From: Spirochaetota bacterium
GTDB taxonomy: Bacteria > Spirochaetota > UBA4802 > JAKQUI01
Assembly: GCA_029562645.1 (NCBI GenBank)
Contig: JAKQUI010000033.1
Location: forward strand, 59,146-123,145
Direction of reading: 5' to 3'
Length of the DNA stretch: 64,000 nt
Positions within the stretch are counted from its first letter, which is position 1. The number at the start of each line of letters is the position of its first letter. A program made the position numbers and the translations under genes. This document shows, in pieces, positions 35,230 through 55,765 of this stretch. A model generated the notes under the pieces. It worked only from the letters and a program-made list of their open reading frames with translations. It made no database searches and was not told the origin of the DNA.

Positions 35230-36087
35230 CTAACGCGGCCGGCCGCAACGGAATATCGCGTCGTTTTTATTGAGACGAAAGCCGCCGCGCTCGACCGAGA
35301 TGCGGTGCGCCATCGCAAAGAGCATCTCCACCGCGTTTTGCTCCAGCTGCGGCTTCTGGTCCATGAGCTCCTTGAGCAGCAAGTACTTCTTGTTTATGAT
35401 ATACCCATAGAGATGCTTCATGCCGTCAAGGGGGAACTCGAGGCTGTTCTCCCAGCCGATCGTCTCCACGGATCCGAAATGCGGCGCGAGGAGATCGGCG
35501 CCGTTTTCCGCACAGAACGACTCCAGCAGACGCTTGATGTGGATCCGGTCGCGCTCGATGGTCACGCCGAGGCGACGGTAACACTCCGGAATGAGATCGA
35601 TGATCTCGCGCAGGCTCTCGCGGCTGTGCGTGAGCGTTACGAAGATCCCCATGGGCCGCAGGATTCGTGCGATCGCGGGGACGAGCTCCGGAAAAAAATA
35701 CAGCGAGTAGCTCGCGGAAATGAGATCGTACGTCTGCGGCTCGAATTCCTCGATCGCCTGCGACGGGGCGCACAGAAACTCGGTCGCGAGGCCCGCCTCC
35801 GCGGTATTGTGCAGGTAGGGGTCCCGGTTCTCCTCCAGCATGTCGACACCCAGCACGAGCGCGTTGCGCGGGATCAGCCCCGAAAGCCCCATGCTGAAAA
35901 ACCCGAACCCGCACCCAAGATCAAGGACAGTGCGAACACCCGAGAGGTCGAGACCGCCTAACGCGACGGCGCGGATATCGGCCCGAGCGCGTGAAAAGCT
36001 CACGATGGTCTTGTGCACCGAGACGTGGTCCGCAGGCTTTCCGAACGTGCCCCGAATCTCCTTTTCGGAGTATTCCGCCTTATCCAT
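35230..36087 (-). CDS. class I SAM-dependent methyltransferase
   Basis: Start at MDKAEYSEKEIRG. Motif I VLDLGCGFGFFS, acidic residue after beta-2 (VLGVDM). Confidence 0.6.
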   Translation of the reverse strand: MDKAEYSEKEIRGTFGKPADHVSVHKTIVSFSRARADIRAVALGGLDLSGVRTVLDLGCGFGFFSMGLSGLIPRNALVLGVDMLEENRDPYLHNTAEAGLATEFLCAPSQAIEEFEPQTYDLISASYSLYFFPELVPAIARILRPMGIFVTLTHSRESLREIIDLIPECYRRLGVTIERDRIHIKRLLESFCAENGADLLAPHFGSVETIGWENSLEFPLDGMKHLYGYIINKKYLLLKELMDQKPQLEQNAVEMLFAMAHRISVERGGFRLNKNDAIFRCGRPR

Positions 36088-36259
36088 GCCATGCCTTTCA
36101 GAGAACAAAAATTCAACAGGATGAAGATACGGCCTGATGAAATCAATTACAAGTAAAATGCGAATTTTCAGGGACGAAATCCTGAAAAATAAAGTATTTA
36201 TTTCAAAAACGGGTCTCGCGTTGCGTATTACTGAAAAAGACTTCCGTATGGAGATCGAC

Positions 36260-36718
36260 ATGCCAATCGACACGACCCTGTACGTCCATCAAACGACTTT
36301 GCAGCTTATTGAAGCCGCATGCGTCATGACGGGAATCAGACGCGGACAGCTCGTAGTTCTGTTGCTCGCGCGGGCCATCCTGAACCGCGGGAAGGCGCTC
36401 AAATCGGGCTCTGCGACGCGATATCAAACGCGCGACCGCAGGGAGATGTGGCGGACCATTCATGTTCGCATGTTAGCGGACGATGCCGATTACTTCAGGG
36501 ACGCTCGGTGTTTTTTCAATGAATCGGTTTCGTTGATTCTGGCGCAGGCGGCGAGAGAATACCTCCGTGAGATACTTCAACGATCGAGAAGCGGCGAGAA
36601 AGTGGATAACTATCCACTTAAAAATTACATCATCTGCAGGGAGGAACGGGACGGATTGATTTTCTGGCACATCTGCTGGGGATTCCCAGAAAAACCTGAA
36701 AAATACTTCCGTCTGTAG
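36260..36718 (+). CDS. hypothetical protein, paralog 1 of a two-member family in this window
   Basis: MPIDTTLYVHQTTLQLIEAACVMTGIRRGQ...REMWRTIHVRMLADDADYFRD...AQAAREYL...ERDGLIFWHICWGFPEKPEKYFRL. Diverged paralog of 48452..48910 with a conserved GLIFWxICWGFP terminus. Confidence 0.45.
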   Translation: MPIDTTLYVHQTTLQLIEAACVMTGIRRGQLVVLLLARAILNRGKALKSGSATRYQTRDRREMWRTIHVRMLADDADYFRDARCFFNESVSLILAQAAREYLREILQRSRSGEKVDNYPLKNYIICREERDGLIFWHICWGFPEKPEKYFRL

Positions 36719-36837
36719 CTCGCGACAGACGCACCCGGAAACGAAAAAACGCCATTATACATTCGGCAATCGAGTTGTTGCGATACACGGCGTCCGGCAA
36801 CTACAGCGCGCTTCGGAAATTACCGCCGCACCCCGCA

Positions 36838-37485
36838 TCATTCCTCGGCCGCACCGGCGTCTTCTTCATCGTCGAGCGGACCAAGCTCCCGCAGCACCGC
36901 ACGAATTACCGCGGCATCGAAACCCCGGCCCTGCAGATAAAAGGCGAGCCGCGAGGCGCGGTTTTTCTTTCCGGCGCGCTGCCGAAGTTTCTTTCGCGCG
37001 CATGCGAGCGCCGCTTCCCGCTCGTCGTCTTCCGACGTTGCGCGCGAGATCGCGGTTGCGATAATGTCCCGCGAAACCCCCTTTCGCTGCAGCTCGCGCG
37101 TGACGAGGTTCCTGCCCACGCCGCCGCGGCGTTTTCGCGCACCGGCATACTCCGTCGCGAAGGCGAGATCGTCGATATAGTGTCGCTCGCACAGATCGCG
37201 AACGGTTTCCGCGATACTGTCGCCGGAATAGCCCTTGCGGCGAAGGTACGACTCCATCTCATGCGCCGAATGGGCGCGCACCGCCAGATATGAAAGCGCC
37301 GCCCGTCGGCACATGTACCGATCGCTCTCGTCCCTGAGCTGGCGATACGCCGCCGCGTCGATCTCGGTCCCGGCCGCGAGCCGATACTGCGCAAAGACCG
37401 CGGCGGAAACCATGAGCGCCTCCCCCGTATCGACGGATATCATCACCCCGTCGCCCTTGAACTTGATTTTTTCCACCAGCGGCAT
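36838..37485 (-). CDS. recX: recombination regulator RecX
   Basis: Start at MPLVEKIKFKGDG. Three-repeat helical RecX pattern (...YLAVRAHSAHEMESYLRRKGY..., ...ELQRKGVSRDII..., ...YLQGRGFDAAVI...). Confidence 0.6.
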   Translation of the reverse strand: MPLVEKIKFKGDGVMISVDTGEALMVSAAVFAQYRLAAGTEIDAAAYRQLRDESDRYMCRRAALSYLAVRAHSAHEMESYLRRKGYSGDSIAETVRDLCERHYIDDLAFATEYAGARKRRGGVGRNLVTRELQRKGVSRDIIATAISRATSEDDEREAALACARKKLRQRAGKKNRASRLAFYLQGRGFDAAVIRAVLRELGPLDDEEDAGAAEE

Positions 37486-37495
37486 GGAGACGCCC

Positions 37496-37900
37496 CTAGA
37501 GACCGCGCAGGAAACCGGCAAGACCGGGGCTGATCCGCTTCGAATGGAGCGAATCGCGGTAGACGAATTTCACGTGCAGGCAGGCGGGCGACAGGTTGAA
37601 TTCCATGGGCTCGGGGAGCAGGGCGACGCCGCGGCAGAAGAACTGGATGGAGCCGTCATAAGCGCATTTGTACAGCGGGGCGCTCTCGGATGCGACGCCG
37701 TCGACGACGAGCCGCACCGTGACGGGATCGGTGACGGCGACGACGCGCGACCCGCGGCGTATCTCGATCCGGTCCGTTTCGGCGTGAAGCCGGCGCTTCA
37801 GCTCGCTGAATCCATGGGCGCCGCAGCCGGCCATGGACAGCACGAGCGCCAGCGTCATCATCAACAACCATGTCCGAAATATGCCCTGCATAGCGCACAC
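37496..37900 (-). CDS. small lipoprotein
   Basis: Lipobox LVLSMAGCG. Confidence 0.4.
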   Translation of the reverse strand: MCAMQGIFRTWLLMMTLALVLSMAGCGAHGFSELKRRLHAETDRIEIRRGSRVVAVTDPVTVRLVVDGVASESAPLYKCAYDGSIQFFCRGVALLPEPMEFNLSPACLHVKFVYRDSLHSKRISPGLAGFLRGL

Positions 37901-37924
37901 ACCTCACCGGTTGGATGCACCGCA

Positions 37925-37957
37925 TGAAAAAAGGGTGCCGATAAAATCGACACCCTT
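37925..37957 (-). terminator. rho-independent terminator after rpsI (also terminator-like on the plus strand)
   Basis: On the minus strand AAGGGTG...CACCCTT (7-bp stem, 13-nt loop) is followed by a T-run (plus-strand A-run 37925-37930). On the plus strand it is followed by TTTTGTTT. Confidence 0.55.
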
Positions 37958-37993
37958 TTGTTTCCAAAGGCAAGTAAAAAACTGGCGTTTCGT

Positions 37994-38386
37994 TTAGCGC
38001 TTGGAGAACTGGAAGCGCTTACGGGCCTTTTTACGGCCGTACTTCTTTCGCTCCACCTGGCGCGAATCCCGCGTGAGAAAACCGGCCTCGCGGAGCGCCT
38101 TCTTGTTGCGCTCATCATGCTGGATCAGGCACCGCGCGATCCCCATGCGCACCGCACCGGCCTGGCCGGACCAGCCGCCGCCGAGCGTTGTCGCTTCAAT
38201 GTCGAATGCGCTGACGGCGCTCAGGAGCTCGAGCGGCTGCCGTACGATGAGCTCGAGGGTTTTACGGCGAAAAAACTCGGATACGTCCTGCTCATTTACG
38301 AGAATCTTCCCCGAACCGGGCTTGAGCCACACCCGCGCGACCGAGGTCTTTCTTCTACCGGTTGCATAATACCGTTCTGCTGCCAT
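37994..38386 (-). CDS. rpsI: 30S ribosomal protein S9
   Basis: 130 aa. ...[15 protein letters not shown]... and the C-terminal ...[18 protein letters not shown]. Confidence 0.92.
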
Positions 38387-38413
38387 GCGATCCTGCTCCT
38401 GTCGTATATTCGA

Positions 38414-38860
38414 TTATTTCTTGATATCGTACGTTTCGGGCTTTTGCGCCTGATGGGGGTGGGCGGTCCCCGCGTAGACCTTCAGGTTCTTGAACATCTT
38501 GCGGCCCAGCCGATTCTTGGGAAGCATCCCCTTCACGGCGTGCTCGATGATGAATTCCGGATTATCCGCCTTGTACTTCTTGATGTTGGTGAACTTCACG
38601 CCGCCGGGAAAGTGCGAATGGCTGAAATACTCCTTGTCGTCGCCCTTGCTGCCGGTGAGCACCACCTTGTCGGCGTTGATGACGATGACGTTGTCGCCAT
38701 CATCCATGTGCTGGGTGTAGGTGGTCTTGTGTTTTCCGCGAAGCAGGTGCGCGACCTCCGTCGCGAGCCGGCCGAGGACCGCCCCATCGGCGTCGACGAG
38801 GAGCCACTTCTTCTCGATTTGCGATGCCTTGATTGAAAACGTGCGCTGCGAACTATTCAT
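38414..38860 (-). CDS. rplM: 50S ribosomal protein L13
   Basis: Start at MNSSQRTFSIKASQIEKKWLLVDADGAVLGRLATEVAHLLRGKHK.... Confidence 0.92.
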   Translation of the reverse strand: MNSSQRTFSIKASQIEKKWLLVDADGAVLGRLATEVAHLLRGKHKTTYTQHMDDGDNVIVINADKVVLTGSKGDDKEYFSHSHFPGGVKFTNIKKYKADNPEFIIEHAVKGMLPKNRLGRKMFKNLKVYAGTAHPHQAQKPETYDIKK

Positions 38861-38996
38861 TGGGTGTTTCCTGAAAACCGATAAAAATTGAGCCGGTGGC
38901 ATCACGAACGAGGCCTACGGCGATGCAGTGGGCAACGCTAAATGTGAGCACCTGATACGTCAATAAAATTTTTTCATCAAAAATCCACCTTTCCGC

Positions 38997-39106
38997 TTGA
39001 CGGTACCGATAACTATCGGTATATTATGACCGAACAGTCGGTCAATATAAAAACTATCCCCGGTGGGGATTTTTAAAAGAATCTTTAATGACCGAATAGT
39101 CGGTCA
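38997..39106 (+). promoter_or_regulatory. sigma70-type promoter with two TetR operator palindromes and a 5'-UTR hairpin
   Basis: TTGACG (38997-39002), a 17-bp spacer and TATATT (39020-39025). Operator 1 TGACCGA-acag-TCGGTCA at 39027-39044. Operator 2 TGACCGA-atag-TCGGTCA at 39089-39106. An extra palindrome ACCGATA-ac-TATCGGT sits inside the spacer. The hairpin ATCCCC-ggt-GGGGAT plus TTTTT at 39056-39078 lies between the operators. Confidence 0.55.
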
Positions 39107-39119
39107 AACAGGAAAAGAG

Positions 39120-39740
39120 ATGTCTCCAAAGATTGTGGATGTTGATGAGAAAAAGAAGCAGATAACCGACGCCGCCATACGGGTCCTCGCCAGGAAGGGC
39201 CTCAAGGAAACGAAGATGGAGGACGTCGCCGAAGCAGCGGGTATCGGGAAAGGCACCCTGTATGAATACTTCAAGTCAAAAGATGAACTCTTCTTGGTCG
39301 CCTATCGTCATATTATGGAAGAATTCGAATGCCAAACCGATTTGAAGCTGCCGGAAAATGTAACCACGATAGACACCCTGAAAGCGATCATTTCGATGAT
39401 GACCTCGATGCACACTTCGGACTTCCCGCTGGATCACTTCCAGGTGCTCACCGAGTTCTGGCTCGAGGAGGTCAAATCGGCAAACCAGGGGAAAAAGCGG
39501 CAATTCGACATGCTCGCCACTTACCGCGAGTATATCGACCTCGTGAAAGCGGTGTTCGAACAGGGGATTCAAAAAGGGGAAATCCGCGACATCAACCCCG
39601 AACACGCCGCCACCATTCTCATGATGATCTTCGACGGCCTCATGCTCCTCTGGATGCTCGACAAGAACTCCTTCGACTTCAAGGGCACCGTGGACACGTT
39701 CGGTGGCATATTCATAAAAGGAATTCAAAAGCAGGGGTAG
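39120..39740 (+). CDS. TetR/AcrR-family transcriptional regulator
   Basis: Start at MSPKIVDVDEKKKQITDAAIRVLARKGLKETKMEDVAEAAGIGKGTLYEYFKSKDELF, the TetR helix-turn-helix signature. Confidence 0.8.
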   Translation: MSPKIVDVDEKKKQITDAAIRVLARKGLKETKMEDVAEAAGIGKGTLYEYFKSKDELFLVAYRHIMEEFECQTDLKLPENVTTIDTLKAIISMMTSMHTSDFPLDHFQVLTEFWLEEVKSANQGKKRQFDMLATYREYIDLVKAVFEQGIQKGEIRDINPEHAATILMMIFDGLMLLWMLDKNSFDFKGTVDTFGGIFIKGIQKQG

Positions 39741-39777
39741 GATATGGCGATCAAAACGGACGCGCCATCATGCGGCG

Positions 39778-39884
39778 CAACCTCACCCCCTACCCCTCTC
39801 CCATAGGAGAGGGGAGTGGAAAAAGCTACTTCCCACGAAGCCCCCTCCTATGGGAGAGGGCGCGCCGGAGGCGGGGTGAGGTTG
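39778..39884. repeat. MITE-like composite palindromic element (copy C of the CCCCTC family)
   Basis: A 12-bp terminal inverted repeat, CAACCTCACCCC at 39778-39789 and GGGGTGAGGTTG at 39873-39884. It encloses the perfect hairpin CCCCTCTCC-ata-GGAGAGGGG (39794-39814) and an imperfect second hairpin (about 39843-39860). Spurious ORFs read through it as ...SPLLWERG. Confidence 0.5.
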
Positions 39885-39927
39885 AACGAGCGTATGTATG
39901 AATAAATCAAGGATAAGGAGAAAACCC

Positions 39928-40683
39928 ATGAAGTCATTAATGATCATTCTCGCGCTGATCACGGCGCTCGCGTCAACGGCACTGCCGTCATACGCCCTCA
40001 CGGGCAAGGAGATCATCAGAAAGACCGAGGACGCCATGCGCGGCACCTCCGTCGTGGGCACCTACCTCATCACCGTGAAGACGAAGCTGTGGACGCGGAC
40101 GATGAAGTTGAAGGCATACGACCAGCGCGCCGGGAAGAAGTCCTTCAACGAGATCTACGAACCGAAAAAGGACGCGGGCAACCGGTTCCTCATGATCAAC
40201 AAGAACATGTGGCACTATGTCCCCAAGCTCCAGCAGACCATCAAGATTTCGCCGTCGATGATGCTCCAGTCGTGGATGGGGTCGGACTTCACCAACGACG
40301 ACATCGTGAAGGAATCCAGCATCGAGGAGGACTACACCCACACGGTCACCGGGACCGCGACGGTGGACGGGCACCCCTGCCATGTCATCCTGCTCACGCC
40401 GAAGCCCGACGCCGCCGTCGTGTGGGGCAAGATAATCTACTCCGTGCGACAAAGCGACTACCTCCCCGTGCGCGAGGAATTCTACAACGAGCATAACGTC
40501 CTCAAGCGGGTGATGACCTTCGGCCAGTTCAAGAAGATGGACGATCGCGTGATCCCCACCCTCTGGAAGATGCAAACCGTGAGCAAGCCGGAGGCGCACA
40601 CGATCCTCGAGATCGCGAGCATCCGGTTTAACACCGCGATCCCGTCACGCACCTTCACCATGCAGAACCTGACGAGGAAGTAG
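39928..40683 (+). CDS. outer-membrane lipoprotein-sorting protein (LolA-like fold), exported
   Basis: Start at MKSLMIILALITALASTALPSYA (signal peptide) with an AAGGAG RBS 8 nt upstream. About 230-aa mature protein of the type that accompanies FtsX/MacB-like ABC exporters. Confidence 0.55.
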   Translation: MKSLMIILALITALASTALPSYALTGKEIIRKTEDAMRGTSVVGTYLITVKTKLWTRTMKLKAYDQRAGKKSFNEIYEPKKDAGNRFLMINKNMWHYVPKLQQTIKISPSMMLQSWMGSDFTNDDIVKESSIEEDYTHTVTGTATVDGHPCHVILLTPKPDAAVVWGKIIYSVRQSDYLPVREEFYNEHNVLKRVMTFGQFKKMDDRVIPTLWKMQTVSKPEAHTILEIASIRFNTAIPSRTFTMQNLTRK

Positions 40684-40685
40684 CC

Positions 40686-41933
40686 ATGAACCGAGAAGCG
40701 ATCGCACAGCTCGCCTGGCGAAACGTGTGGCGCAACAAGCGCCGGACGATCCTGACGCTCGCCACCATCGTCGTCGGCTGCGGCATGATCATCCTCAACA
40801 ACGCCCTGGCCAAGGGCGGGCATGACGGGATGATCAACGACGCGGCGATCACGAGCGCCGGGCACATCCAGGTGCACCGCGCCGGCTACTGGGCGAGCCG
40901 CACCATCGACTACGCGTTCCAGGTGCCGGACGGCCTCACCGCCGCGCTCGGGCGAGACCGTCGGATCGCCGCGCACACCGAGCGCATCCATGCCGCCGGG
41001 CTCCTCGCCTTCGGCGCGAACACCTCCGGCGGGCAGATCCAGGGCGTGGATCCCGCGCGCGAGCCGGCGGTGACCAACCTGCACACGTGGGTCCTTCCCG
41101 GCGGGCGCTATCTCACCGCGGAGGATTCGACCCACGCGATCGTCGGGGAGACGCTCGCGAAGAACCTCGGCGCGAAGGTCGGCGACGTCGTCTCGATCAT
41201 CTCGCAGGGGCTCGACGGGTCCATCGCCGCCGAGAAGCTCACGGTGGTGGGCGTCTTCCGCTCGGGCAATCCCGAGTACGACCAGACGCTCCTCGTCATG
41301 CCGATCGAGCAGGCGCGCGCGACCTTCTCGATGGAGCGCTACATCCACGCCATCGTCGTCCGTCTCGCCGACATAAAGCACGATGCGGCGGTCATCGATT
41401 CGCTGCGTGCGTCCCTGCCGGAGACGGAGCGGTCCTCGATCGAGGTGCTGGGATGGGACACGCTGATGCCCGAGCTCGTCCAGTTCATCGCGCTCGACGA
41501 CATCAGCGCCTACATCTTCGATTTCATTCTGTTCCTGGTGGTCGCCTTCGGCATCCTGAATACCGTACAGATGGCGGTCTTCGAGCGCACGCGCGAGTTC
41601 GGGGTGATGCTGGCGGTGGGCACGCGGCCGGGCCAGGTGGTCCACATGGTGCTCATCGAATCCGCGATCATATCGACGTTAGGCGTCATTGCCGGCGGCA
41701 TCGCGGGGTTCCTGGCGAGCCTGTACTTCAAACTGCGGCCGCTGGATTTTTCGGACTACTCGAACGAGATGGCGACGATCGGCGTGAGCATGACAAAACT
41801 CCCGGCCGATGCGACGGCGGCGAACATCGCCGTGACCGCCGTCATCACCCTGGCGCTGACGATCGTCTTCGCCTATTTCCCGGCGCGTCGCGCGTCGAAA
41901 CTCAAGCCGGTCGAAGCGATCCGGCAACTGTAG
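40686..41933 (+). CDS. ABC transporter permease, FtsX/MacB-like
   Basis: 415 aa. N-terminal TM, a large periplasmic domain, then three C-terminal TMs containing the FtsX region ...LVVAFGILNTVQMAVFERTREFGVMLAVG.... Confidence 0.8.
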   Translation: MNREAIAQLAWRNVWRNKRRTILTLATIVVGCGMIILNNALAKGGHDGMINDAAITSAGHIQVHRAGYWASRTIDYAFQVPDGLTAALGRDRRIAAHTERIHAAGLLAFGANTSGGQIQGVDPAREPAVTNLHTWVLPGGRYLTAEDSTHAIVGETLAKNLGAKVGDVVSIISQGLDGSIAAEKLTVVGVFRSGNPEYDQTLLVMPIEQARATFSMERYIHAIVVRLADIKHDAAVIDSLRASLPETERSSIEVLGWDTLMPELVQFIALDDISAYIFDFILFLVVAFGILNTVQMAVFERTREFGVMLAVGTRPGQVVHMVLIESAIISTLGVIAGGIAGFLASLYFKLRPLDFSDYSNEMATIGVSMTKLPADATAANIAVTAVITLALTIVFAYFPARRASKLKPVEAIRQL

Positions 41934-41946
41934 CGGGAGGATACAC

Positions 41947-43182
41947 ATGCAGACCATATTCGCCATGGGCTGGCGCAACATCTGGCGACACCGCCGCCGC
42001 TCCCTGGTGGTGATCTCGTCGATCGCCCTGGGCATTTTCGCCATGATATTGTCGATGGGCATCATGAACGGCATGAACAACCAGGCGATCGAGAACACCA
42101 TCCGGACCGCGCTGGGACACATCGCCATCCACCGGAAGGGATTCCACGAGGACATGAAGATCGCGCACAACTTCAAATCGACCGATCGCATCATGCGGTC
42201 GATCGCGGCCGACCGGCGCATCGCCGCCGCCGCGCCTCGGGTGAAGCTCCCCGGCATGGTCCGCTCGAGCGAGACCTCGCAGGGCGTCCTCATCGTGGGC
42301 ATTGATCCCGAGAAAGAAATGAAGATCTCGAACCTGTACCAGTACACGTCGAAGGAAAACGGCAGCCGCTTCCTCGCCTCGCCGGACGAGAACGCGGCGC
42401 TCATCTCGCAGCAGACGGCCGATCGCCTCAAGCTCGTCGTGGGCGACAAGCTGGTGCTGATGCTCCAGGACCGCAACAACGAGATCGTGGGCGTGGGCAT
42501 GACCGTCGCCGGGACCTTCCAGACGCCCGTGGAGAGCTTCGACAAGCTGGTGGTCTTCACGGGGATCGGAAAGCTGCAGGAGATCACGGGGCTCGGGGAG
42601 AACATCTCCGAGATCTCCATCGCGATCACGGACCCCGCGGCGATCACGGACATCAAGCGGCGCCTCATCGGCGCGATCGGCGACGATTCGCTCGAGGTGC
42701 TCACCTGGATGGACATGGCGCCCTACCTGGTGAGCGCGGTGAAGTTCTTCGACACGATCATGTACATCACCTTCGTCATCATCTTCCTGGTGGTCGTCTT
42801 CTCAGTGGCCAACACCCTGGTGATGGCGATCATGGAGCGATTCCACGAGATCGGCGTCATGAAGTCGATCGGCACGCGCCCGTCGTGGATCGCAACGATG
42901 ATCGTCTTCGAGGCGGTGAACCTGGGCCTCGTGGGGCTCGTCGCCGGTGTCGCCGCGGGAACGCTCTCGGTCGCGGCGCTCTCGATCGGCGGGATCAACC
43001 TGGGGCTTTTCATGGAGTCGCTGCGCGCCTGGGGGACCGGCAGCGTCATCTTCCCGGTCATCAAGGGCATGGACATCGTCGTGGCGGCCCTGATCGTCCT
43101 CGCGACTACGGTCCTCGCGGCGGTCTACCCGGCCGTCAAGGCCGCGCGCATCAAGCCGCTCGAGGCGCTTCATTTCGTATAA
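41947..43182 (+). CDS. ABC transporter permease, FtsX/MacB-like (second copy)
   Basis: 411 aa. Same architecture. ...VVFSVANTLVMAIMERFHEIGVMKSIGTRPS.... Confidence 0.8.
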   Translation: MQTIFAMGWRNIWRHRRRSLVVISSIALGIFAMILSMGIMNGMNNQAIENTIRTALGHIAIHRKGFHEDMKIAHNFKSTDRIMRSIAADRRIAAAAPRVKLPGMVRSSETSQGVLIVGIDPEKEMKISNLYQYTSKENGSRFLASPDENAALISQQTADRLKLVVGDKLVLMLQDRNNEIVGVGMTVAGTFQTPVESFDKLVVFTGIGKLQEITGLGENISEISIAITDPAAITDIKRRLIGAIGDDSLEVLTWMDMAPYLVSAVKFFDTIMYITFVIIFLVVVFSVANTLVMAIMERFHEIGVMKSIGTRPSWIATMIVFEAVNLGLVGLVAGVAAGTLSVAALSIGGINLGLFMESLRAWGTGSVIFPVIKGMDIVVAALIVLATTVLAAVYPAVKAARIKPLEALHFV

Positions 43183-43210
43183 CGCAATAGACCATCATGT
43201 GGAGAAAACG

Positions 43211-43930
43211 ATGAATATCATAGAACTGCAATCGATCACCAAGACCTACGACACCAACGGGCTCACCGTCCCGGCGGTGCGCGGCGTCGATCTCGTCGTG
43301 GAAAAGGGCGAGTTCTCCGCCCTCGCGGGGCCCTCGGGCTCCGGCAAGACGACGCTCCTGAACCTCATCGGCGGCCTGGACAATCCGTCGGGCGGAACGG
43401 TGTCGGTGGGCGGCGAGAACATCACCGGCTATTCGCCGCGGCAGCTCTCGGACCTGCGCCTGCGGAAGATCGGCTTCATCTTCCAGGCGTACAACCTCAT
43501 CCCGGTGCTCAGCGCGATCGAGAACGTCGAGTACATCCTGCTTTTACAGGGCATGGAAAAGACCGAGCGCCGCCGCCGCTCGGCCGCGATGCTGGCCGAG
43601 GTGGGCCTGGAGGGACTGACGGACCGGCGGCCGCACCAGCTCTCCGGCGGACAGCAGCAGCGCGTGGCCGTCGCGCGCGCCATCGTCTCCGAGCCCGACA
43701 TCGTGCTGGCCGACGAGCCCACGGCCAACCTGGACCAGAAGACGGGCGCGGCGCTCCTGGACCTGATGCACGAGCTCAATCGTACAAAAGGAATCACCTT
43801 CCTCTTCTCGACCCACGACGGCATGGTGATGGAGCGCGCGGAGCGCCTCATCAGCCTGCGCGACGGCGTCGTCGAGCACGACCGCGTGAAGCGGCGGGCA
43901 AAACCTCGATCCGCGAAACGGAAGCGGTGA
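43211..43930 (+). CDS. ABC transporter ATP-binding protein (LolD/MacB-ATPase-like)
   Basis: ATG start at 43211, downstream of the GTG used by the ORF track, with a GGAGA RBS. Walker A GPSGSGKTT, signature LSGGQQQRVAVARA, Walker B ...IVLADEPT. Confidence 0.9.
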   Translation: MNIIELQSITKTYDTNGLTVPAVRGVDLVVEKGEFSALAGPSGSGKTTLLNLIGGLDNPSGGTVSVGGENITGYSPRQLSDLRLRKIGFIFQAYNLIPVLSAIENVEYILLLQGMEKTERRRRSAAMLAEVGLEGLTDRRPHQLSGGQQQRVAVARAIVSEPDIVLADEPTANLDQKTGAALLDLMHELNRTKGITFLFSTHDGMVMERAERLISLRDGVVEHDRVKRRAKPRSAKRKR

Positions 43931-43940
43931 GCGATCCTGC

Positions 43941-45350
43941 ATGAGTCTCTTGCGGTACATCAGTGCGCTGATTCTGCTCGCCGTCCTCGCGACGCCCGCG
44001 TTCGTGGGCGCACAGACGAACGGCGGTTCGAAGGCGGACATGCCGGATGGCGCGGCATCGCCGGATCGGCCCGACATAACCGAAACAAAAAAGGATGCGA
44101 ATGACGAGGAGGCGAAAGTGTTCTCGTTCAAGGCGCAGTTCAAGGAGCTGTTCACCTACACGGACACCATCGAGCGCTCCTTCGCGGTAAACACGTACAT
44201 CGACGAGTCGACCGGTGAGGTCGGCTACAGCGTGAAAGAGAAGGCGCGCAACAAGTCGCTCTTTGCGAATCTCATGCGGCTGCGCCTTTCGCCCGAGATC
44301 AAGGGCGGGGAGCGCTTTCTTCTGCACGTCGATCTCGACAACGAGATCATCAGTTCGGATTACATGAAGAGCCGCGAGTTCGACCAGTACTGGCGTCCGT
44401 CAGACTACAACGATTTCGCAGATCTCTCCTGCGAGCCGGTCTACGACGACATGAGCTACTACCGGATGAAGCTCCATCGGGCGTACGCCAAGATCCTTCT
44501 GGACAAGTTCACCGCGACCATCGGGCGGCAGCAGATCCGCTTCGGCAGCGGCCGCCTGTGGAATCCGCTGGACATCCTCAATCCGATCTCGCCCACGTAC
44601 GTCGAGGGGCCCGAGGACCAGAAGGGGACCGACGCGCTGCGTCTCGAGTACTATCCCTTTGACAAGACGGAGCTCGGGCTCATCATCGACCCGAAGCGCA
44701 TGGACAACGACGAGGACATCGGGAAGCTCAACAGCGACAACACCAACGTGCTGGCCCGCTTCAAGACGTCGTTGTACGAAACAGAAATCGCGCTCATGGG
44801 CGGGCGCGTCTCGCATCGCCTGGTGGGCGGCGCCGACGCATCGACCCACCTGCTCGACGGGCTCCTCCGCGGATCGGTGCTTTACGCCAAGCCCGATCCC
44901 GGGCGCGAGTACGCCCAGGCGAGCGCCGGCTACGAGTATAACTTCTCCTTCGGCCTGTACTTCCTGATCGAATACTTCTACAACGAGAACGGGATGAACT
45001 ACAACTCGAACCTCGCCAACGCCTACGAACGGTTCGTGATGGAGGGCATGAGCGAAGCGATCTACCGCAAGCTCGCCAATCAGCTGCTCACCTGGAACCA
45101 GCACTACGGCGGCATCGCGCTCGGGTACGACATCACCCCGCTCGTGCGCGGGGAGCTCTTCTCGATATACGACTTCCAAGGAAAGGGCCTCTATGCAGCG
45201 CCGTCGCTCAAGTACAACATCGTGCAGAACGCGGACCTCGCGATCGGGGTCATGAAGGCATACCGGATGGGGATTTCGCGCACGCCGACGGACTTCGAGA
45301 GCCTCATCAATCACCCGTATTTTTTCTTCTCGCTCGTCGCGTATTTCTGA
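43941..45350 (+). CDS. secreted beta-barrel-like protein (alginate-export/DUF1302-like), the putative outer-membrane component of the cluster
   Basis: 469 aa. Signal peptide MSLLRYISALILLAVLATPAFVGA. ...TIGRQQIRFGSGRLWNPLDILNP.... Terminal ...FFFSLVAYF. Confidence 0.45.
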   Translation: MSLLRYISALILLAVLATPAFVGAQTNGGSKADMPDGAASPDRPDITETKKDANDEEAKVFSFKAQFKELFTYTDTIERSFAVNTYIDESTGEVGYSVKEKARNKSLFANLMRLRLSPEIKGGERFLLHVDLDNEIISSDYMKSREFDQYWRPSDYNDFADLSCEPVYDDMSYYRMKLHRAYAKILLDKFTATIGRQQIRFGSGRLWNPLDILNPISPTYVEGPEDQKGTDALRLEYYPFDKTELGLIIDPKRMDNDEDIGKLNSDNTNVLARFKTSLYETEIALMGGRVSHRLVGGADASTHLLDGLLRGSVLYAKPDPGREYAQASAGYEYNFSFGLYFLIEYFYNENGMNYNSNLANAYERFVMEGMSEAIYRKLANQLLTWNQHYGGIALGYDITPLVRGELFSIYDFQGKGLYAAPSLKYNIVQNADLAIGVMKAYRMGISRTPTDFESLINHPYFFFSLVAYF

Positions 45351-45454
45351 GGGGACGCGGCGGGATCAGACCTGGAAAATGGGATTGACATATTTGCATT
45401 CGAGCCGGTTTATTTGCCATAGTGAAAGATATCTTGATTGTTCACGGCGGCACA

Positions 45455-45709
45455 ATGAAAGCCTTACGATTCGTAGAAAGAATAGCAAACGGCAGGATCG
45501 TTGTTGCGAAACTCGACAAGTACTCGGGGATGGATGCCGAGGTAATCATCATCCCGCTCATCGAAACCAAATCAAACGGAAAGAACGCAACGACGAAAAA
45601 AACGGCAAGCATGCGAGGGTGCTTGAAAAAATACGCCAATCCGCTCCTTGTGCAGGACGAGAAGGAGGCATGGGCGACGGCAGCCGGAAAAAAGCATGCG
45701 GGTTTGTGA
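45455..45709 (+). CDS. vapB: AbrB/SpoVT-type antitoxin (VapB-like)
   Basis: 84 aa. MKALRFVERIANGRIVVAKLDKYSGMDAEVIIIP is a swapped-hairpin-like motif. Overlaps the PIN gene by 14 nt. AT-rich. Confidence 0.5.
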   Translation: MKALRFVERIANGRIVVAKLDKYSGMDAEVIIIPLIETKSNGKNATTKKTASMRGCLKKYANPLLVQDEKEAWATAAGKKHAGL

Positions 45710-46106
45710 CGCAAATGTAGTACTCCGATATATACTTGATGACATTCCGGAACAGGCATCCATTGCTGCAAAAATAATCGACAACGAGAACGTATATATT
45801 CCGTTTGAGGTTGTCGCCGAGATTGTATATGTGCTCGAAAAGGTATATCGCATACCCCGAAGGGTAATATCAACAAGCATCAGAAATCTTTTACGGCACA
45901 ATACTATTCAAACCGTCGATAAGACAGTAGCCTTCCATGCTCTTGATGTATATAAAGACACGAAACTTGACATCGTTGACGCTTTTCTGTGCGGCTATCA
46001 GAAAAAACACCAGCATACAATAGTGACGTTCGATAAAAAACTCTTGAAACAGTTGTCACGAATGAAATCTTCATCGAGAAGAGAATCAAAAAAACTTAAA
46101 CCTTGA
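45696..46106 (+). CDS. vapC: PIN-domain ribonuclease toxin (VapC-like)
   Basis: Start at MRVCDANVVLRYILDD (Asp at position 5). Further acidic residues ...EIVYVLEK..., ...DIVDAF... and ...TFDKK... fit the PIN catalytic quartet. Confidence 0.65.
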   Translation: MRVCDANVVLRYILDDIPEQASIAAKIIDNENVYIPFEVVAEIVYVLEKVYRIPRRVISTSIRNLLRHNTIQTVDKTVAFHALDVYKDTKLDIVDAFLCGYQKKHQHTIVTFDKKLLKQLSRMKSSSRRESKKLKP

Positions 46107-46157: not shown

Positions 46158-47117
46158 ATGCTCCAAAAAATAATTAACGCCGTAAAAATCTACTTCTCGA
46201 TGCTCAACATGACGCCGGGCAGCGCACCGCCGATCTTTCGGAAACCGACGGTTGATGTCCCTCAGGCGAAGCCGACGCCGTTCTGGGTGCATGTGCTGCT
46301 GTTTGCGATCACGTTTGTGACGACGACGGCGTCGGGCGTGGTCATGTGCGCGCAATCCGACGATTTCATCGCCGAGATTCCGCGGGTGGGGATCCCCTAT
46401 GCGCTGGCCATCATGACGATCCTGCTCGCGCATGAGCTGGGCCATTACTATGCCGCAAAACGATTCGACGTTGCGACGACGCGGCCGTTCTTCATCCCCT
46501 TCATTCCGCCGGTGGGCACCATGGGCGCCGTGATCCGGATAAAATCGAAGATTCACGACAAGCGAACGCTCCTGTACATCGGCGCAGCGGGACCGATGAT
46601 CAGCTTTACCCTCAGCCTTGTCGCGACTGTCGTTGGATTGCTCCTTTCCGAGGTAAAGGCCTTTCCCGCCGCGCCTCCCGGCGGCGAGCTCATCGAGCTG
46701 GGCGATTCGATCATTCTTTTAGGCCTCACGCGACTTATTCACGGCGAGATTCCCCCAGGCTTTGGCATGATCATATCGCCGCTCACCTGGGCGGGCTGGA
46801 TCGGTTTCCTGGTAACCAGCCTCAATCTGATGCCCATCGGCCAGCTCGATGGCAGCCATATTCTCTATGCGCTCATCGGGCGGCGGCAGGTCTATGCGGG
46901 CTGGCTCGCATTCGCCGGTCTTGTGGCCCTTGCGGTCGTGTGGCCGGGGTGGATCGTGTGGATCGCGCTTGCGCTCATCGTGCTCATGATCGGCCATCCC
47001 CCGATTGAAGACGGAGAACCGATAACTATCGGCGAACGGATAGCCGGATGGTTCTGCATCGTCATTCTTATCATCACCTTTATCCCCCAGCCGGTTAACA
47101 TACTTCCGATTAAGTAA
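46158..47117 (+). CDS. M50 / site-2-protease family zinc metalloprotease
   Basis: 319 aa, polytopic. HELGHYYAAK (HExxH) and the downstream ...LMPIGQLDGSHIL (LDG motif). Confidence 0.75.
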   Translation: MLQKIINAVKIYFSMLNMTPGSAPPIFRKPTVDVPQAKPTPFWVHVLLFAITFVTTTASGVVMCAQSDDFIAEIPRVGIPYALAIMTILLAHELGHYYAAKRFDVATTRPFFIPFIPPVGTMGAVIRIKSKIHDKRTLLYIGAAGPMISFTLSLVATVVGLLLSEVKAFPAAPPGGELIELGDSIILLGLTRLIHGEIPPGFGMIISPLTWAGWIGFLVTSLNLMPIGQLDGSHILYALIGRRQVYAGWLAFAGLVALAVVWPGWIVWIALALIVLMIGHPPIEDGEPITIGERIAGWFCIVILIITFIPQPVNILPIK

Positions 47118-55590: not shown

Positions 55591-55765
55591 TTATTATTGC
55601 ATTTTTTCATTCTCTACCGGCACTGTCTCGATGTCGCATCGACAGCATACGCACCTCACCCCTGTCCCTCTCCCACACGATAGGGAGAAGCGGCGGAACG
55701 CTTCCGTAAAACGCACCTCGGAACGGAAGGTGCGGCCCGGGGAGCGGGTGAGGCAACAGAATTGT

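Follow-up and report, generated by a model that had tools for sequence, protein, structure and literature searches.

A predicted self-repressed promoter with two TetR-family operators ahead of an envelope-export operon in a Spirochaetota bacterium

We study here the control region of a putative six-gene operon in a Spirochaetota bacterium, within a 64-kb stretch of contig JAKQUI010000033.1 that we refer to as the window. All coordinates are positions in this window, and the stated feature positions were checked by direct reading of the letters. It is probable, in our judgment, that the region holds a single self-repressed promoter, from which a FadR-like TetR-family repressor would be transcribed along with a LolA-like carrier, a LolCDE-like transporter and an outer-membrane barrel protein. 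An earlier note had called the region a fully specified autoregulatory switch. That description is overstated. Two of its five elements, a leader hairpin and a palindrome in the promoter spacer, find no support as parts of a switch; its core, consisting of the promoter and two operators (O1 and O2), stands, with the FadR-like layout and the recurrence among relatives described below. The features of this core are as follows.

38997-39002, plus strand: -35 hexamer TTGACG, close to the sigma-70 consensus
39003-39019, plus strand: promoter spacer of 17 nt, by direct reading
39020-39025, plus strand: -10 hexamer TATATT, close to the sigma-70 consensus
39027-39044, no strand assigned: operator O1, TGACCGA-acag-TCGGTCA, covering the predicted transcription start near 39032
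39089-39106, no strand assigned: operator O2, TGACCGA-atag-TCGGTCA, the second equal-armed site, in the tetR leader
39110-39115, plus strand: Shine-Dalgarno sequence AGGAAA of tetR, 4 nt (39116-39119) before the ATG at 39120
39120-39740, plus strand: tetR, encoding a 206-aa FadR (YsiA)-like TetR-family repressor (Pfam TetR_N PF00440, 1.4e-17)

The promoter, its operator and the repressor

The promoter TTGACG-17-TATATT matches 10 of the 12 consensus positions and is the sole plus-strand promoter match in 38300-39800. It has the attributes of a sigma-70 promoter: both hexamers, a 17-nt spacer, and a position that is shared among orthologous loci. The position of the -10 hexamer would place the start of transcription near 39032, and a single base pair separates this hexamer from O1. 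Both O1 and its second copy, 62 bp downstream from start to start, lie where the earlier note had put them. The true repeated unit is slightly larger than the operator core: it comprises 20 nt, ATGACCGAAYAGTCGGTCAA, at 39026-39045 and again at 39088-39107, and the two direct copies are 95% identical. The distance from O2 to the ATG of tetR, formerly counted as 14 nt, is 13 nt on recount (39107-39119). The start codon itself is confirmed by the family N-terminus, MSPKIVD. We also considered a 16-codon leader open reading frame (ORF) from an ATG at 39026 and rejected it, because it lacks a ribosome-binding site and would begin 5' of the predicted start of transcription.

How unusual is the operator sequence? 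Exact matches to TGACCGA-N4-TCGGTCA were sought throughout the 64-kb window, where O1 and O2 are the only two. When up to two mismatches are allowed, 0.42 matches are expected by chance in the window, and a count of four was reached in none of 100 shuffles. We also scored the window with a weight matrix built from 78 other loci, with the window itself left out. O1 scores 36.6 bits, next to a best score of 36.8 bits among the matrix's own 78 loci, and O2 scores 30.1 bits; the next best site anywhere in the window reaches 11.9 bits.

The strongest evidence comes from relatives of the repressor. We collected 79 metagenome loci and 80 genome loci; the TetR family members of the latter show 28-40% identity and represent Calditrichota, KSB1, Desulfobacterota, Aminicenantes/Acidobacteriota, Zixibacteria, Leptospira, Myxococcota and other lineages. 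In the genome loci we counted the motif as present if it had at most 3 mismatches in its 14 arm positions and lay at most 200 nt upstream of the tetR homologue; this holds in 78 of 83 loci, not counting the window. A site of at least 18 bits by the matrix occurs in 52 of the 56 usable, independent metagenome loci. Taken together, 130 of 139 loci, spread over many phyla, have the motif 5' of their tetR homologue. By comparison, the remaining 886 kb of these loci contain only 23 sites with two or fewer mismatches, about 18 of which fall directly after the tetR stop codon.

The geometry recurs along with the motif. In 68 of 79 loci the operator comes after a promoter with 9 or more of the 12 positions matched, and a -35 hexamer TTGACA, TTGACT or TTGACG stands at the equivalent position in 68 of 79 related loci. 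The commonest hexamers in the family are TTGACA and TATATT, the latter serving as the -10 in 29 of 68 loci. From the end of the -10 to the operator core there is 1 nt in 23 of 68 loci, as in the window, and 5 nt in a further 14; the median gap between the operator and the start codon is 18 nt. The locus of the next-closest TetR homologue (L001; 44% identity) reads TTGACG-17-TATATT-ATGACCGAATAGTCGGTCAT directly before the gene, and two loci more distant than this one show the same arrangement of promoter and operator. That is, the motif tracks its homologue and sits 1-5 nt after the -10, as would a co-inherited operator of a TetR/AcrR regulator. Since the same motif and geometry recur across phyla, the promoter and O1 are, on this comparative evidence, an ancient conserved module, which the window carries in its modal form. 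We regard it as established, at the level of sequence comparison, that the adjacent repressor family has its cognate operator in the 20-bp palindrome at O1.

A palindrome in a leader might also act as RNA rather than as DNA. The stem that O2 would form in the transcript is stable (-9.8 kcal/mol, z -4.4) and ends 3 nt before the Shine-Dalgarno sequence, so that one could imagine these palindromes working as hairpins of the 5' untranslated region, with the O2 stem, for example, controlling translation or the stability of the mRNA. The variation among relatives makes this very improbable. Arm positions A3, C4, C13 and G15 are invariant in all 78 sites, and among 65 distinct operators the arms change on one side 72 times, with only 19 of those changes keeping the pairing, and on both sides only 4 times. 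One-sided changes combined with near-invariant bases argue for a DNA sequence that is read by a protein, and not for a helix maintained by pairing. Furthermore, the common layout in the family puts the start site inside the left arm, so that the full stem would not be transcribed. We also computed the mutual information between helix-turn-helix residues and operator variants; this analysis was dropped because phylogeny dominated the signal.

The repressor has the domain composition of the TetR/AcrR family, an N-terminal helix-turn-helix followed by an all-helical ligand-binding domain. Its structure model consists of nine helices (predicted local distance difference test, pLDDT, of 89), and TetR folds are its top matches in a fold search. 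The closest sequences in the PDB are the FadR proteins of B. subtilis and B. halodurans, and among NCBIfam models the Bacillus-type FadR (NF053878) matches best, its score of 78.9 bits falling short of the cut-off of 200. All family members share the recognition helix, GIGKGT[IL]YEYF, which fits the invariance of the operator site; Gly45 and Tyr48, the equivalents of Gly42 and Tyr45 in FadR, are likewise invariant.

The resemblance to FadR extends to the site. The FadR operator consists of GATGAATGAAT followed by ACTCATTCAT, and is bound by two dimers on overlapping 16-bp inverted repeats that are offset by 4 bp; each monomer reads an ATGA(A/G)T repeat with base contacts from Gly42 and Tyr45, and the two dimers do not touch each other (PMC5397183). 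The operator of the window shares the 7-4-7 layout of FadR, and its GA dinucleotides recur at intervals of 4 bp (TGAC-CGAA); family variants such as CGACCGACCGGTCGGTCG fit four quarter-sites. Thus we may compare FadR, with ATGAATGA-ATAC-TCATTCAT, to the sites studied here, with ATGACCGA-AYAG-TCGGTCAA (FadR from 5GPC, PMC5397183): both are palindromes of 20-21 bp with 7-nt arms, a 4-nt centre and GA-centred quarter-sites 4 bp apart; in both, the recognition helix carries the base-contacting Gly and Tyr; and in both, the operator stands at the regulator's own promoter. The differences are equally clear. The arms carry CC here, whereas those of the FadR box, ATGAATGA-N4-TCATTCAT, carry AT, and the helix reads GIGKGTLYEYF here but GVADGTIYLYF in B. 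subtilis FadR. The genes regulated here would serve envelope export, whereas FadR governs fatty-acid degradation and responds to long-chain acyl-CoA. In short, the locus is nearest to the Bacillus FadR system, its closest solved relative, in the architecture of its site; it is not a FadR equivalog, since the arms of the site, the score and the regulon all differ.

By analogy with B. halodurans FadR, we would expect two repressor dimers to occupy O1, on the four GA-centred quarter-sites 4 bp apart; such a dimer-of-dimers mode is a reasonable expectation. The bound repressor would cover the start site near 39032 and block RNA polymerase. A ligand, probably hydrophobic or lipid-like, would free the repressor, and tetR would then be transcribed together with the export genes. 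The nature of this inducer is a guess, drawn from the kinship with FadR and from the Lol-like route of the cargo.

Other members of the TetR family provide a second point of comparison. In QacR with IR1, and in Tn10 TetR with tetO1 and tetO2, the palindromic operators overlap the -10 and the start site or follow directly after them; QacR places two dimers on each site, and the Tn10 system has two operators in one control region. Their operator sequences have no similarity to the sites in the window. In addition, the tetO sites serve two divergent promoters, whereas both operators here belong to one promoter, with O2 some 60 nt into the leader. The E. coli RutR box, with the consensus TTGACCAnnTGGTCAA, shares the outer half-site TTGACC, and RutR appears among the fold and NCBIfam matches of the repressor; the site in the window, in contrast, is 4 bp longer, having an extra inner CGA quarter-site in each half. 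A short operator, TGACC-N4-GGTCA (14-16 bp), is seen in a few relatives (L006, 118-133, and L089), with a spacing like that of RutR and such as a single dimer would need, and the family may switch between one-dimer and two-dimer sites. In open-access text we found no paper containing the operator sequence, and the literature on LolA, MMPL and TetR yielded no description of this regulator.

A second operator without a promoter

O2 lies within the transcribed leader, at about +58 to +75, and ends 3 nt before the Shine-Dalgarno sequence. All 14 of its arm positions are intact, and its matrix score and arms establish it, again by sequence criteria, as a second site of operator quality. A second promoter was looked for before O2 and none was found: the best match there reaches 7 of 12 positions, which equals the random background.

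Operators of this kind are not confined to the window. In 27 family loci a second operator of at least 18 bits follows right after the tetR stop codon and before the next gene. Examples, which lie at about +600 to +640 from the tetR start, are the following.

L015, 1503-1520: post-tetR operator
L028, 6627-6644: post-tetR operator
L004, 7625-7642: post-tetR operator

The promoter match before these 27 operators is 6-9 of 12 positions, as at random positions, while the primary operators are preceded by promoters scoring 10-12 of 12 in 86 of 127 loci. By these sequence measures, then, operators that lie within the transcription unit and lack a promoter are a recurrent feature of the family, found in about 20% of the relatives. 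The post-tetR operators are often preceded by a run of 6-8 T. Because of their position within the unit, without a promoter of their own, such operators are best explained as roadblocks to elongation.

The window has no post-tetR operator. Given this, and given that promoter-less operators recur in the family, we take O2 to be the local counterpart of the post-tetR operator, moved 5' of tetR, with the consequence that repressor and transporter would be throttled together. The most likely role of O2 would be to stop elongation as a roadblock of bound protein, to tighten repression as a second site of high affinity, or to do both. Two full operators 5' of tetR are rare: they are spaced by 62 bp in the window, by 37 bp in L076, by 35 bp in L139 and L140, and by 82 bp in L146. 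We did not adopt DNA looping between O1 and O2, for which the 62 bp would amount to about 6 helical turns, since the spacings of 37, 35 and 82 bp are out of phase and the FadR dimers make no contact.

Could O2, together with the hairpin that precedes it, be a neutral by-product of a local rearrangement, binding the repressor yet adding little regulation? There are two routes by which this might have come about: a 62-bp duplication of the operator, or the relocation of a post-tetR operator junction to the 5' side of tetR. The 20-nt unit shared by O1 and O2 is a nearly perfect direct copy, and one upstream operator with a short leader suffices for most relatives. Around O2, the order of elements (a T-run, about 14 nt, the operator, a ribosome-binding site) is like that at the junctions after tetR in relatives, and the post-tetR operator is missing from this genome. 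On the other hand, O2 has kept all of its arm positions and a score of 30 bits, and double upstream operators recur independently in at least 3 other lineages. O2 is also identical in 12 strain-level copies, although their diversity is too low to prove constraint. Intermediates that might date the 62-bp segment were sought and none was found: below 100% identity, the next TetR homologue stands at 44% in the protein database and at 39% in the metagenome scan. On balance we consider a neutral origin unlikely and prefer to read O2 as a working operator.

The leader hairpin, the spacer palindrome and the divergent genes

Two further inverted repeats lie in the region.

39056-39070, plus strand: leader hairpin ATCCCC-ggt-GGGGAT, followed by TTTT at 39071-39074; weak and probably not functional
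39004-39021, no strand assigned: spacer palindrome P3, TACCGATA-ac-TATCGGTA, overlapping the first two bases of the -10

The hairpin sequence is present as the earlier note reported it, but its run of T has four members, becoming five only if the last base of the stem is counted, and the idea that it forms a terminator-like part of the switch finds no support, as it is weak and unconserved. If it were a working terminator or attenuator, most transcripts would stop after about 43 nt, and expression would depend on read-through or on a second start. The stem does have features of such an element: it is a perfect 6-bp stem with 4 G-C pairs, with A5 upstream and T5 downstream, and a terminator scan flags the site, albeit on the minus strand only and not on the plus strand. 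However, it reaches just -8 kcal/mol with a fold z of -1.4, and it is followed by 4 T, where an intrinsic terminator would have a U-tract of about 6-8. With 2 terminator-like sites found and 1.3 expected, the hairpin falls within chance. There is no alternative antiterminator pairing, the fold of the entire leader is no more stable than that of shuffled sequences (z -1.15), and no promoter occurs between the hairpin and O2 from which a second start could be made. Rfam gave no meaningful match at E up to 10 in 38700-39300, and none at the gathering score in 36000-46000. The hairpin has no second copy in the window and no counterpart in relatives.

The strain-level copies add one observation to this. 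Among 12 copies, taken from different samples and two strain lineages, the sole variable site in the 274-bp intergenic region is position 39072, which is T or C; in 4 of the 12 copies, all of one strain lineage, TTTTT thereby becomes TTCTT. This polymorphism is weak evidence against a needed U-tract. A single-nucleotide difference in 274 bp also leaves the strain copies unable to reveal constraint on either O2 or P3. Taking these points together, we consider a functional terminator or attenuator improbable.

The palindrome P3 is indeed present in the promoter spacer, and is one base longer in each arm than the earlier note had it. An 18-nt palindrome such as this is expected only 0.01 times by chance. 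It contains ACCGA/TCGGT half-sites, and such cores occur in 7 of 68 family promoter spacers, with 0.8 expected. Their offsets to the main operator range from -35 to -11 and are not fixed, and on this ground we rejected P3 as a canonical auxiliary operator. The CGA elements of P3 are 9 bp apart (G to C), while the operator uses 7, 11 and 15, and P3 itself is absent from relatives; with a spacing foreign to the operator and no conservation, its proposed role as a part of the switch is not supported. P3 might assist the operators weakly, might be what is left of a former operator, or might be bound by some other factor. Both the hairpin and P3 are species-specific and probably not essential to the switch. 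We also observe a 15-nt exact copy of the P3 core, AACCGATAACTATCGGCG, at 47017-47034, a copy that would hardly arise by chance and that falls within an ORF for a peptidase M50 (46158-47117).

The genes rplM and rpsI lie upstream on the other strand, with the start of rplM 134 bp upstream of the -35. This proximity raises the question of whether the divergent rplM-rpsI pair is controlled from this region, in addition to tetR or in its place, or whether a second regulator binds the region through P3. Besides the short distance, the minus strand carries a candidate promoter, TTTATA-17-CATAAT (39051..39023), with O1 in its spacer and P3 at its start; and P3, as we have seen, is far beyond chance, with its core repeated elsewhere in the window. 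Yet this minus-strand match reaches just 9 of 12 positions in AT-rich sequence, and a candidate more typical of ribosomal-protein promoters is available: TTGACG-17-TAGCGT at 38963..38935, which has an A/T-rich upstream tract and stands back to back with the tetR promoter. The second copy of the P3 core sits in coding sequence. Finally, relatives keep the operator next to other upstream neighbours, such as def and fmt in L001, which indicates that the site tracks tetR and not rplM. It is hardly likely, then, that the operators belong to the ribosomal-protein genes or that P3 recruits a second regulator; the reading we favour remains that of a promoter controlled by the adjacent repressor.

The export operon and the wider family

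The genes downstream of tetR are listed below.

39928-40683, plus strand: LolA-like periplasmic carrier (PF17131), likely starting at ATG 39928 after AAGGAG
40686-41933 and 41947-43182, plus strand: two MacB/LolCE-type FtsX permeases, found in 36 of 83 related loci
43199-43930, plus strand: LolD-like ATP-binding cassette (ABC) ATPase, matching family profiles
43941-45350, plus strand: 469-aa protein with no Pfam family, a predicted large outer-membrane beta-barrel; last gene of the operon

The LolA-like gene is called as 251 aa in L169. The model of the barrel protein is all-beta (pLDDT 84), and Foldseek matches it to MOMP, chitoporin, OccK and AlgE at 1e-9 to 1e-11. It has hundreds of homologues, all annotated as hypothetical. 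In 67 of 83 loci tetR is followed by a LolA-like homologue in the same orientation, which supports co-transcription of the six genes as a likely arrangement; a barrel homologue lies downstream in 51 of 83 loci, and in 67 of 83 the gene neighbourhood is made up of LolA-like, transporter (ABC or MMPL) and barrel genes. Whether the transporter of the cluster is of the ABC or the MMPL type, the barrel gene and the LolA-like gene are found together. In L167 (1773-8326), which has the closest barrel homologue (57% identity), the same LolA-like/FtsX/ABC operon stands behind a PadR-like regulator and DUF6713; as these replace TetR, the regulator of the export module has been swapped between lineages.

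The composition of the operon is like that of the E. coli LolCDE-LolA pathway and of the Borrelia BBJ23-29 cluster (PMC13078400), in that it has a MacB/LolCE-type ABC transporter, a LolA-like carrier and an outer-membrane beta-barrel. The Borrelia cluster differs by having no TetR regulator and an Omp85-like barrel, whereas the barrel here is porin/AlgE-like.

The spacer between tetR and the LolA-like gene is 187 nt long and holds a GC-rich inverted-repeat element of 107 bp (39778-39884). This element has perfect 12-nt terminal inverted repeats, CAACCTCACCCC and GGGGTGAGGTTG, and an internal 20-nt inverted repeat, CCCTCTCCCATAGGAGAGGG and CCCCCTCCTATGGGAGAGGG; it occupies the place of the post-tetR operator of relatives. 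It has no Rfam match, and its only other copy, at 55666, is partial. It could be an insertion like a miniature inverted-repeat transposable element (MITE) or a repetitive extragenic palindrome (REP), or a structured RNA. After the operon there is a VapBC-type toxin-antitoxin-like pair, consisting of a small ORF (45379-45720) that overlaps a PIN-domain ORF (45648-46106).

Proteins that group with those of the window at 90% identity or above bear the label of Spirochaetota bacterium metagenome-assembled genomes. Strain-level diversity is not uniform along the locus. It amounts to 0.3-0.6% in tetR and the ribosomal genes (rplM, rpsI); the LolA-like gene at 39928-40683 differs by 1.7-3.2% from its counterparts in L169 and L176-L178, a divergence that could stem from recombination or from faster evolution of the carrier. 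In L171 (1974-3021) an insertion sequence element with an rve-family transposase lies directly 3' of tetR, in the place of the LolA-like gene, and the operon appears to be disrupted in that strain.

Several points weigh against the reading of the locus as a single self-repressed operon promoter with a FadR-like repressor and a roadblock operator. Every functional step in it (binding, start site and expression) is deduced from sequence. The FadR score of the repressor is far under the equivalog cut-off, and the fold search of its model did not separate FadR, RutR, BetI-like and MtrR folds and so does not discriminate ligand classes. A roadblock role for a TetR-family protein is read solely from the position of the operators and their missing promoters, and the spacings of the double operators vary, with no conserved phasing or looping logic. 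Lastly, the GC-rich element in the tetR-lolA spacer might terminate transcription or hide a promoter.

Looking beyond the window, we propose, tentatively and with more doubt than we attach to the reading of the locus itself, that the family represents a widespread and so far undescribed regulon. In this regulon a FadR-like TetR (helix GIGKGTIYEYF), acting on YGACCGA-N4-TCGGTCR, would control a trans-envelope export module made up of a LolA-like carrier, a LolCDE-like ABC or MMPL transporter, and barrels that have no Pfam family. About a fifth of the loci would carry a roadblock operator, and the window would be a variant with the roadblock 5' of tetR. The module is found in Calditrichota, KSB1, Desulfobacterota, Acidobacteriota/Aminicenantes, Zixibacteria, Spirochaetota, Myxococcota and other lineages. 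If this proposal is true, an in-operon roadblock would separate the expression of the repressor from that of the transporter.

The locus is ordinary in kind, and it leaves the general understanding of TetR regulators unchanged; what it adds is an operator model that applies family-wide and a class of promoter-less operators. For the locus itself, the promoter, the two predicted operators and the weight matrix constitute a well-founded prediction that can be tested directly. The promoter-less TetR operators provide a natural set in which to study roadblock repression. For the family, the 20-bp motif marks the control site of an uncharacterised LolA-like/ABC (or MMPL)/barrel export module in well over 100 uncultured genomes, and it offers a handle on the inducer of that module, and hence on its cargo.

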